Notes: generated by a model not told the origin, from the sequence alone. DNA of 64,000 nt from an uncultured Candidatus Saccharibacteria bacterium (GCA_964510435.1 CAZEBU010000002.1:5458-69457); one strand, 5' to 3'. Shown: positions 31,859 to 48,498, numbered from the stretch's first letter. Numbers and translations are program-made.

Positions 31859-33209
31859 CTCTTAAAATAGCGTAGATCGGCCGATCTTCCTGTTCAGTCA
31901 ACCCGTTGGTCTTTTTGCCGATAGCAAAATAGGTAATACCCAGACTTTCCACCTCATCTTTTTGCAGAAGATTCCTACCATCAAAAATAACCGGCGCTTT
32001 CATCAATCTTTTAACTTTTTTCAAGTCAAGATTAGCAAATTCCATCCATTCAGTTAAAATACACAGGGCGTCGGCACCCTTAACAGCCTCATAAGCCGAA
32101 CTGCAGTAAGTAATGTTAGGTTTTCCGAGTTCTTTCCTGGCATTTTCCATGGCTTCCGGATCATAAACTTTAAGATTTGCACCCAAACCACGCAACATTT
32201 TTACAAGTCTAATGGAAACGGAATCGCGGGTGTCATCAGTGTTATTTTTGAAGGCTAAACCTAAACAGGCTAGAGATTTATTTGAAAGGTTACTACCAAG
32301 ATGAGAAACTATCTTTTTTAGAAAATAATCCTTTTGCAAATCATTTACCTCCATAACGCCGCGTAACAGCTTAAAATCGTACGCTTGGTCTGTAGAAGTT
32401 TTATACAAAGCAACCACATCCTTAGGGAAACAACTTCCGCCGTAACCTAATCCCGCATTTAAAAAATAAGCGCCGATCCTTTTATCCAGACCCATTCCTT
32501 TTGCTACAGTTTGTACATCAGCACCAGCTCGCTCACATAGTTGGCCTATTTCGTTGATAAAAGAGATCTTGGTAGCTAAAAAGGCATTAGAAGCGTATTT
32601 TATGAGCTCTGATGACCTTAGATCACACTCCACAAGAGGAGACTTTAGATGCTTGTATAACCTCCTCATGACCTTTAAAGCTTTTTGGGAATCAAAACCA
32701 ATAACCGTTCGGTCGGTGTTTTGCATATCCTCAATAGAGGAACCTTCTCTTAAAAATTCGGGGTTGGAAACAACATCAAAACTTACCTTTTGCTTTAAAT
32801 TTTCCTTAATGATTTCCTTGACTCTTTCGTTAGTACCAACCGGCACAGTACTCTTAACAACAATGACTTTGTAGGAGGTAAGACTCTGACCAATTTCCTT
32901 GGCTACAGCCCACACCGCACTTAGATCGGCAGCGCCATCATCACCTTGCGGAGTACCCACGCAGATAAAAACTACTTCCGCATCTTTAATACCCTTAGGA
33001 AGTGAGGTAGTAAATTTCAATCTTCCGTCTTCAATGTTTTTTAAAACGAGTTCGGATAAACCAGGCTCGTAAATAGGCATTTCCCCGGAGGTGATCTTCT
33101 TGATCTTTTTCCGGTCAATGTCTATGCCCACTACTTCCTTACCCCACTCAGCAAATACAGCCGCCCCTACTAATCCTATGTAGCCAGTGCCAATTATTGC
33201 TAGTTTCAT
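31842..33209 (-). CDS. ugd: UDP-glucose 6-dehydrogenase (UDP-glucose/GDP-mannose dehydrogenase family)
   Basis: The NAD-binding N-terminus is MKLAIIGTGYIGLVGAAVFA. The catalytic Cys region is GYGGSCFPKDV, and a C-terminal UDP-binding domain is present. Confidence 0.9.
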   Translation of the reverse strand: MKLAIIGTGYIGLVGAAVFAEWGKEVVGIDIDRKKIKKITSGEMPIYEPGLSELVLKNIEDGRLKFTTSLPKGIKDAEVVFICVGTPQGDDGAADLSAVWAVAKEIGQSLTSYKVIVVKSTVPVGTNERVKEIIKENLKQKVSFDVVSNPEFLREGSSIEDMQNTDRTVIGFDSQKALKVMRRLYKHLKSPLVECDLRSSELIKYASNAFLATKISFINEIGQLCERAGADVQTVAKGMGLDKRIGAYFLNAGLGYGGSCFPKDVVALYKTSTDQAYDFKLLRGVMEVNDLQKDYFLKKIVSHLGSNLSNKSLACLGLAFKNNTDDTRDSVSIRLVKMLRGLGANLKVYDPEAMENARKELGKPNITYCSSAYEAVKGADALCILTEWMEFANLDLKKVKRLMKAPVIFDGRNLLQKDEVESLGITYFAIGKKTNGLTEQEDRPIYAILRDDKNK

Positions 33210-46231: not shown

Positions 46232-46660
46232 CTAGTCCACAAGTAAAACTTTAACTTTAGAGTTTACTGCTCCTGGTATAGGGCCGGAAACCATAAACTC
46301 ACTGCCGTCTTTTGATACGTTAACAATTTTTAAACCCTTAATGGTCACATTCTTATTTCCGTGTCTGCCCGCCATTTTTTTACCTTTAAAAACACGACCG
46401 GGCGTCTGAGATCCTATAGACCCTGCTGCTCTTGGTTTATTAGATTGCCCATGCGTTGCTCGACCCCCTTTAAAACCCCACTTTTTCATTACTCCAGTGA
46501 AGCCTTTTCCTTTTGATCTTCCCGTAACGGCAACCTCTTTATCTAAATAATCACTTTCTATCCCGTCATCCGTTTTAATGATGGTCACAGGAACAACCTT
46601 ACCGTTCCCCAAAAATATCTGACTCATCTTTACTTTTTTTCCTTTTATAACTTTATTCAT
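46232..46660 (-). CDS. rplC: 50S ribosomal protein L3, reduced form (142 aa, versus about 210 aa typically)
   Basis: The N-terminus is KGKKVKMSQIFLGNGKVVPVTII. The core GKGFTGVMKKWGFKGGRATHGQS...GRVFKGKKMAGRHGN is conserved. About 65 aa of the usual N-terminal-domain insertion are absent. Confidence 0.9.
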   Translation of the reverse strand: MNKVIKGKKVKMSQIFLGNGKVVPVTIIKTDDGIESDYLDKEVAVTGRSKGKGFTGVMKKWGFKGGRATHGQSNKPRAAGSIGSQTPGRVFKGKKMAGRHGNKNVTIKGLKIVNVSKDGSEFMVSGPIPGAVNSKVKVLLVD

Positions 46661-46691
46661 CTTATTACCGCGTTATTCGTTTATACTCCAC

Positions 46692-46716
46692 AAAAAAAGC
46701 GCCCTTGGGGCGCCCC
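46692..46716 (-). terminator. GC-rich hairpin plus U7 (intrinsic terminator / attenuator) about 30 nt upstream of the rplC start codon
   Basis: The minus strand reads GGGGCGCCCCAAGGGCGC followed by TTTTTTT, with stem GCGCCC/GGGCGC. This stretch is unusually GC-rich for this genome. Confidence 0.55.
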
Positions 46717-46776
46717 ATATCGCAAGCTTTTTCCCAAGACATTAATAATCATGTACCTTTTTCAGTCACAATCTGC

Positions 46777-46808
46777 ATTATATCTTACTTTGCTCGATAA
46801 ATCACTTC
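46777..46808 (-). promoter_or_regulatory. Promoter-like P3 inside the rpsJ-rplC spacer. On the minus strand it reads GAAGTGATT -35, 17-nt spacer, TATAAT, then about 65 nt to the terminator hairpin.
   Basis: Plus strand attata is at 46777-46782 and aatcac at 46800-46805. It shares the TCA-N3-AGTGAY upstream element with P1 and P2. Confidence 0.4.
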
Positions 46809-46858
46809 TTGATAAATCTGGCTTCGTTCGATGTATTACTTCGTAATAGAACAAAATA

Positions 46859-47179
46859 CTACATCTTTATTGAAATACCTACACCTGCAGGCAAGTTCAA
46901 TCTAGATAGGCTATCTACTGTTGAGCTAGTTGGATTAATGACATCTATCACTCTCTTGTGTGTCCTTAACTCAAACTGCTCTCTTGATCTCTTATCAATA
47001 TGGGGACCTCTAATAACAGTGAACCTTTCTTTTCTTGTAGGCAGCGGTATGGGACCAACAACCTTTGCTCCTGTTCTAATCACCGTATCCACTATTTTGG
47101 AGCAACTTAGATCCATGACCCTACTGTCATACGAATTTAGCTTTATTCTAATTTTTATATCCTTCTGTTCTTTAGCCAT
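46859..47179 (-). CDS. rpsJ: 30S ribosomal protein S10
   Basis: Length is 106 aa with N-terminus [14 protein letters not shown]. It is separated from rplC by a 198-nt untranslated spacer. Confidence 0.95.
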
Positions 47180-48414: not shown

Positions 48415-48498
48415 TTTTTTCCTTTCAAATTAATTAACTAATTATTTATTCCTATTAAAATTTTAGCAGAGGTAGTTAACCAAGAAAAGCGATTAAAA

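Follow-up and report, generated by a model that had tools for sequence, protein, structure and literature searches.

The 198-nt spacer between rpsJ and rplC on the minus strand of the window (the whole 64-kb stretch of DNA that was analysed) is read here as the 5' control region of an rplC-led ribosomal-protein operon of WWE3-like Patescibacteria, in which protein feedback acts on a leader with two alternative folds; we give this reading a probability of about 0.55. Judged from sequence comparison, the large ribosomal-protein operon is probably controlled by this leader, as a switch that has not been described before. A preliminary description of the window had seen a regulated attenuator in the succession of promoter, leader and intrinsic terminator ahead of rplC, and the comparative structure of the leader in relatives supports that view well. 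An r-leader is characterised by conserved, covarying RNA structure in the 5' UTR of genes for ribosomal proteins (PMC7247131), and the leader shows these traits.

The ORF list placed rplC at 46232-46660 and rpsJ at 46859-47179, both on the minus strand, with rpsJ (S10, 106 aa, from ORF list and translation) as the final gene of the tuf-rpsJ unit upstream. These gene calls bore out the 198 untranslated nt claimed between the two genes (46661-46858). The fold of the whole spacer was modestly better than that of shuffled sequences (z = -2.3). S10 showed 73-92% identity to the S10 proteins of relatives, and the nearest named relatives of L3 were 'candidate division WWE3' and 'Patescibacteria group' bacteria (60-72% identity). 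With 142 aa, the L3 of the window is shorter than the 209-aa E. coli protein: the stretch from the N-terminal VPVT strand to the GxSKGKGF motif lacks about 55-65 residues, and L3 was also short (129-176 aa) in most of the best 120 homologues listed.

Relatives were collected by a scan of genome contigs with an L3 alignment, which picked universal L3 motifs and returned mostly unrelated phyla, and by a metagenome scan combined with eight exact-protein look-ups. The former yielded four loci with a WWE3-type short L3 (L001-L004, two of them titled WWE3) and 76 background S10 loci, and the latter about 40 more WWE3-like loci; contigs encoding the 97%-identical protein P0001 were not found by exact-protein look-up. 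One locus, L083 (contig VAPB010071820.1), encodes an L3 with 100% identity to that of the window. The rpsJ-rplC spacer measured 67-391 nt in all ~40 WWE3-like loci, and the 391-nt spacer (L162:1014-1404) carries promoter and leader at its 3' end. The statement in the preliminary description that rpsJ and rplC are normally adjacent held in part: the minimal spacer of the non-WWE3 background had a median of 33 nt, but it reached at least 60 nt in 32 of 98 loci. Long rpsJ-rplC spacers are not unique to the WWE3-like clade. In L062 (Paceibacterota), the S10 and L3 matches lie ~1.2-1.6 kb apart. In L020 (Candidatus Levyibacteriota, another candidate-phyla-radiation lineage), the spacer has 208 nt (L020:2790-3000), and ~55 nt ahead of rplC it contains GGUAGCC-UAAU-GGCUAUC and a U7 run, a hairpin of terminator-like form; the family model described below does not match this spacer.

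The spacer between tuf and rpsJ is 56 nt long and nearly filled by one strong hairpin, a 10-bp GC stem at 47221-47191 on the minus strand (AGGGCGCUGC-UAUG-GCAGCGCCCU). Because this spacer is too full for a promoter, rpsJ is most simply regarded as co-transcribed with tuf, which supports the earlier grouping of rpsJ with the genes upstream. The same hairpin corrects the earlier remark that the terminator before rplC was the only strongly GC-rich hairpin in the area. In all WWE3-like loci the tuf-rpsJ spacers (~50 nt) hold a GC hairpin of 8-12 bp located 12-20 nt before the rpsJ ATG, with a weak or absent U-tract; the stems differ wholly from relative to relative, and the structure is therefore kept by covariation and not by sequence. 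It may fix the tuf:rpsJ ratio, whether by leaky termination, by stabilising the mRNA or as a site of processing. The fusA-tuf spacer (84 nt) contains an extended -10-like TGCTAAAAT at 48460-48468 (minus strand), and tuf-rpsJ may have a promoter of its own besides read-through from rpoC-rpsL-rpsG-fusA. Over the rpsJ stop codon, an AU-rich hairpin lacking a U-run (GAUGUAGUAUUUUGU...GUAAUACAUC) is predicted at 46830-46865 (minus strand). The equivalent position of L081 has a GC hairpin followed by UUUU, possibly the terminator of the tuf-rpsJ unit, 5' of the rplC promoter.

Inside the rpsJ-rplC spacer, the -10 element AGATATAATGC (46775-46785, minus strand) contains a perfect TATAAT at 46782-46777 and is combined with a poor -35. 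This promoter did not rise above chance in the window by itself, TGNTAWAATGC with at most one mismatch giving 13 matches against 12 expected, and a consensus promoter scan did not list the element at 46782-46777. The extended -10 reads TGATATAATGC in the closest relatives and TGTTATAATGC, TGGTACAATGC, TG(A/C)TACAATGC or TGATAAAAT in others; TGnTAyAATGC is kept in the window, L081, L082, L084, L085, L158, L160-L164 and L112. The distance from the end of the -10 to the 5' arm of the terminator is constant, at 54-63 nt in at least 13 leaders. Of the promoter-like element proposed earlier, what stands is thus a -10 kept at a fixed distance in relatives, and what does not is any signal above chance level in the window itself; the predicted promoter becomes convincing only via its conservation. 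Downstream of the -10, relatives read TATAATGCnnn(T/A)TGTG(T/A)..., with (U/A)UGUG(U/A) conserved, and the corresponding leader start in the window is UUGUGAC (46765-46771, minus strand). From the -10 spacing, transcription would start at about 46771-46769 and give a leader of ~80 nt. Since the -10 is kept even in a subclade without the terminator, the promoter is the most widely conserved feature, and rplC appears to have its own transcription start across the clade.

The terminator hairpin GGGGCGCCC-CAA-GGGCGCUUU (46696-46716, minus strand) comprises nine pairs, six G-C and three G-U, and runs into a U7 tract (46692-46698, minus strand) 31 nt before the rplC ATG. Intrinsic terminators are recognised by a G+C-rich stem (5 bp or more), a loop of 3-8 nt and a U-run directly 3', all of which this hairpin shows, and the 46716-46696 hairpin ranked first among terminator-like sites in a 16-kb scan. 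The pattern GCGCC-N3-9-GGCGC occurs once in the 64 kb, against 0.02 copies expected. A GC hairpin with a U-run was present in 24 of 30 annotated leaders, ending 2-58 nt before the rplC ATG; this gap is too short for a promoter, and rplC and the genes downstream must therefore be transcribed through the hairpin. Most of these hairpins share the GCGCC/GGCGC core, and the variant stems include GAGCGCUC/GAGCGCUU, GGCGUCC/GGACGCC, AUGAGCU/GGCUCAU, CCCUC/GAGGG and GUGCC/GGCAC. In a model-derived alignment of relatives, pairing of the terminator stem reached 92.9%; the GCG core did not vary, and three pairs were compensated.

An anti-terminator pairing, which the preliminary description had only envisaged, was present, conserved and covarying. 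In the window it forms a hairpin at 46703-46739 (minus strand) with an outer helix of 6-7 bp, an internal loop, an inner helix of 4 bp and an 8-nt loop. The outer helix pairs UCUUGGG (46733-46739, minus strand) with CCCAAGG at 46709-46703 and is supported by covariation, and the inner helix pairs GCUU (46724-46727, minus strand) with GGGC at 46715-46712, the base of the terminator 5' arm. In relatives the upstream element spans 5-8 nt and lies 9-21 nt 5' of the terminator hairpin; its complement consists of the final 2-3 nt of the 5' arm together with the loop, frequently extended by the first nt of the 3' arm. The outer helix and the apex change together, with at least ten distinct compensatory types: CUUGGG:CCCAAG (window, L082, L163), CUUUGG:CCAAAG (L081), CUUGGA:UCCAAG (L084), CAAGGG:CCCUUG (L002, L092), CAAGA:UCUUG (L090), UCAGGGC:GCCCUGA (L091), ACGGG:CCCGU (L097), AAAGAGG:CCUCUUU (L001, L165), ACGAAGGC:GCCUUUGU (L159) and UCUAGGG:CCCUGG (L164). 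The inner helix appears as GCUU:GGGC, GCUC:GAGC and similar pairs.

The pairing was assessed by a permutation test that uses no alignment and is free of structure-fitting bias, in which the best helix was scored between each apex and each upstream window while the windows were swapped among sequences. Apices paired with their own upstream windows reached a mean helix score of 13.6, compared with 10.5 ± 0.42 after permutation, and none of 20000 permutations reached 13.6. Shuffle tests of each sequence, with G-U pairs allowed, were individually weak for the apex pairing, and its significance comes from the comparison across sequences. MAFFT alignments of the leaders set the upstream element out of register and were replaced by a 4-sequence seed and covariance models, the first of which (R1) was seeded on these four sequences with the nested structure. 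In the resulting alignment of 18 sequences the antiterminator was 91.1% paired, compared with 75.5% after shuffling, the covariation score was 0.424 versus 0.190 for shuffled alignments (0/500) and at most 0.174 for slid controls, and six of six outer pairs had changed on both sides (26 cells); another model-derived alignment gave similar values. Since such alignments are built to fit the structure and their members share ancestry, these values support the structure, and the shuffle counts are not to be read as probabilities. RNAalifold returned the terminator from the full-length alignment, as expected of the more stable fold.

The family models recognised the leader specifically. Their sole significant match in the window lay at 46690-46740 on the minus strand (R1: 38.6 bits, E = 1e-8; second round, R2: 47.9 bits, E = 1.6e-11), and all matches with E ≤ 0.01 in relatives were 5' of rplC. 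The second-round model recovered L106, L091 and L164, none of which had been used in building it. The first model also recovered most relatives; among 100 unrelated S10 loci it gave five weak matches (E 0.024-0.93), and the one inspected (L027) lay outside the rpsJ-rplC spacer. A weak match at 32461-32486 of the window (E = 0.13) was discarded as merely a GGCGCUUAUUUUUU string.

Predicted energies bear on how the two folds could alternate. When the nascent leader was cut just past the loop, the two-tier hairpin was the minimum-free-energy fold in ~24 members, essentially all of the main clade; in the window, the antiterminator was the minimum-free-energy fold before the 3' arm appeared (-10.5 kcal/mol). 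Taken as isolated hairpins, the antiterminator of the window had -10.4 and the terminator -13.5 kcal/mol, and the means over members were -10.2 and -12.2 kcal/mol, respectively; the full-length minimum-free-energy fold keeps the antiterminator in several relatives. As in an attenuator, the antiterminator excludes the terminator by engaging the 5' arm of the latter, and because it forms before the 3' arm exists, the layout corresponds to a classical expression platform.

On this basis, we propose that the extended -10 promoter would initiate the ~80-nt leader, in which UCUUGGG would pair with the top of the 5' arm and the loop while GCUU pairs with the arm base, completing the antiterminator (46739-46703) before the 3' arm is transcribed. 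As the 3' arm GGGCGC and the U7 tract emerge, the slightly more stable terminator (46716-46696) could displace the antiterminator, and RNA polymerase would then stop 31 nt before rplC; a persisting antiterminator would permit read-through. Every transcript of the rplC operon, including read-through from tuf-rpsJ, would have to pass the U7 site. A trans-acting factor would tip the balance between the folds, in all likelihood one of the ribosomal proteins encoded downstream, with L4 (45609-46229) as the candidate by precedent: binding of the leader by L4 in excess over rRNA may shift it towards the terminator and so close a negative feedback loop. S10 (NusE), encoded by rpsJ, would lie outside this loop and be expressed with tuf.

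A constitutive, factor-independent attenuator is a serious alternative to such a switch, even if we hold it unlikely. The two folds would then merely fix read-through and keep a constant ratio of tuf/rpsJ to the downstream genes, perhaps modulated by general factors such as NusA or NusG and with no specific sensor. The folds are near-isoenergetic, so the partition could be kinetic, and the terminator is on average ~2 kcal/mol more stable, which suits a partition of this kind; the conserved hairpin after tuf suggests structural 'dimmers' along the cluster. One subclade, moreover, does without the attenuator. This AT-rich WWE3 subclade (L089, L093, L095-L103, L107-L109 and L122; spacers of 73-98 nt) keeps the promoter (TGGTAAAAT; TGGTAAAATTGC) and a short hairpin leader without the GC hairpin or the U-run, which were either lost or absent from the outset; some lineages can therefore dispense with the attenuator. 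The L3 N-terminus in this subclade reads MLKI[NE]ALK. Against a constitutive device, a weak terminator alone could fix a ratio, whereas an antiterminator that covaries in many lineages, joined to a dedicated promoter, is the mark of switchable leaders. If the attenuator were constitutive after all, it would be an ordinary expression-tuning device.

Members that depart from the common pattern were seen as well. L104, L110, L121 and L004 have the terminator (A)nGUGCC-UCC-GGCAC(U)n without a nearby apex pairing, and L003 likewise lacks such a pairing. Farther upstream, at 60-80 nt, both L121 and L004 carry GGAGGUGAAG, a complement of the CCUCC or CUUCC at the apex of the hairpin, and L121 also has AGGCAC, which is able to pair with the 5' arm.

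Covariation proves that the upstream element and the loop pair, not that this pairing and the terminator are mutually exclusive, and the two could instead form a static pseudoknot or kissing fold that serves as a protein-binding site or translational operator by rplC, with the U-run incidental. Larger loops (L097 CGUAAAAA, L091 CUGAA) leave 1-5 loop nt free, as in an H-type pseudoknot, and in many relatives the hairpin lies 6-20 nt from the start codon. Most members, by contrast, use the whole 3-4 nt loop together with the closing pairs and leave 0-1 nt to cross a 6-bp helix, a geometry that is expected to be sterically unfavourable. The inner helix occupies the base of the 5' arm and makes sense only as part of an alternative fold, and the hairpin stands at varying distances from the ATG (2-58 nt). 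We therefore regard a static fold as improbable.

The classical expression-platform layout and the conserved purine-rich internal loop GGRAAUAGCU speak for a leader of riboswitch type, with an ion or small molecule as its ligand. Such a sensor is more improbable still: the core is a tiny hairpin of 35-40 nt with a variable apical loop and few invariant unpaired nt, it has no Rfam match, and the neighbouring genes all encode ribosomal proteins, a context usually governed by protein feedback (PMC7247131). Rfam 15 gave no match at the gathering threshold in the window and 20 loci; at E ≤ 10 the spacer region returned chance-level matches only and no ribosomal-leader family, the sucC match having 15.7 bits and E = 2.8. 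The sucC, STnc320 and Atu_C8 matches (E > 2) reflect the hairpin alone and were rejected. Rfam was silent even on L025, the sole enterobacterial S10 locus scanned, and its silence therefore says little about L4 leaders. Least probable of all is an independent ~80-nt small RNA gene located between rpsJ and rplC by chance, for although a conserved promoter followed by an intrinsic terminator would suit it, the element always stands directly 5' of rplC on the same strand, 2-58 nt from the ATG, no promoter follows it, so that rplC is transcribed through it, and the covariance models found no second copy elsewhere in the window or the loci.

Attenuation by a leader peptide was considered and rejected: the window has ORFs over the hairpin (e.g. 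ATG GGG CGC ..., 17 codons), and by eye neither their frame nor their presence is conserved in L081, L082 and L084. Mimicry of 23S rRNA was likewise rejected for two segments of the window, GCGAUAUGGGG (compared with E. coli 23S GCGAUACAGGG) and GCGAUAUGGGGCGCCCC (compared with GCGAUACAGGGUGACAGCCCC), as neither resemblance is kept in relatives.

Candidate-phyla-radiation bacteria have not been cultured, their genomes are tiny and encode few regulators that can be recognised, and to our knowledge almost nothing is known of their gene regulation. A terminator/antiterminator switch supported by covariation, ahead of the largest ribosomal-protein operon, provides a concrete, testable regulatory RNA for this radiation, and a literature search found no report of ribosomal leaders in Patescibacteria. 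The operon map is redrawn, with tuf-rpsJ as one unit and rplC onward as another, and in the tuf-rpsJ unit S10 goes together with an elongation-factor gene, much as in archaea and cyanobacteria. [quoted passage not shown]

The junction of rpsJ and rplC holds a different conserved element in other bacteria. In 16 background loci (L047:2619-2675, L049, L051, L053-L056, L058, L061, L068, L069, L016, L040, L044, L060 and L073), the rpsJ-rplC spacer (80-150 nt) contains a near-invariant block of ~55 nt, UGUGUAACGCUCUGAAAUGGGCGGCCAUAGCGGGUGAAAGCCCCGUACAC; the hosts are Pseudomonadaceae, Cellvibrionales, Porticoccaceae and one unclassified 'Proteobacteria bacterium'. The block aligns with nt ~286-342 in domain I of E. 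coli 23S rRNA, a segment that Stelzl et al. (2003) reportedly identified as the L4 site proper. BLAST returned 23S genes only (82.5% identity over 40 nt, nt 302-342), the block had no Rfam match, and we found no paper describing it. According to the title of a work listed as ref. 202 in PMC10931766, 23S domain I competes for L4. Judged from its sequence, the block is probably an rRNA-mimic operator between rpsJ and rplC, perhaps for L4. It resembles the WWE3 leader in being a conserved structured element at the same rpsJ-rplC position; unlike that leader it has no terminator or antiterminator, and the WWE3 leader shows no such similarity to E. coli 23S. The two together suggest that sites downstream of rpsJ came to control the operon more than once and that the uncoupling of S10/NusE from L4-type feedback is recurrent, and the block hints independently that the rpsJ-rplC junction can be a place of L4-type control.

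Among known systems, leaders with conditional terminators are established for ribosomal-protein operons (PMC7247131, PMC1865079, PMC3616713). The L4-controlled leader of the E. coli S10 type belongs to Gammaproteobacteria (PMC3616713, PMC10931766); in E. coli it lies upstream of rpsJ, with hairpins HA-HE, of which the HD-HE pair is needed for L4-stimulated termination, and with HG overlapping the rpsJ start (PMC3616713), and acts by L4/NusA-stabilised pausing and by translational repression (PMC3616713, PMC10931766). Both it and the window element are 5' leaders of an S10-type cluster with a terminator hairpin followed by U's, where transcription may be attenuated, and like the E. coli leader the window element would control rplC, rplD and the genes onward. 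In contrast to the E. coli leader, for which no antiterminator is known, the window element has two states and lies downstream of rpsJ; no sequence similarity was found between the two, and their architectures differ by eye (PMC3616713). The preliminary description had called the element S10-leader-like and supposed that the leader had moved one gene downstream. Taken to mean an E. coli-type L4 leader, the first label is not supported, given the two-state architecture, the lack by eye of an HA-HE/HG series and the absence of detectable homology. The supposed move is not supported either, since the element lies between rpsJ and rplC, not upstream of rpsJ with an HG overlap; an independent origin is more likely than relocation of an E. 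coli-type leader. Closest in mechanism is the leader of B. subtilis infC-rpmI-rplT, which responds to L20 and also has mutually exclusive terminator and antiterminator folds (PMC1865079); it differs in operon and phylum, in its length of ~200 nt and in its rRNA-mimic L20 site, and has no homology to the window element. Closest in position is the L4 r-leader candidate of Archaeoglobi (PMC7247131, Table 1), which likewise stands directly 5' of rplC-rplD-rplW-rplB with S10 outside, whereas it is archaeal, has a different motif and is described without terminator logic (PMC7247131).
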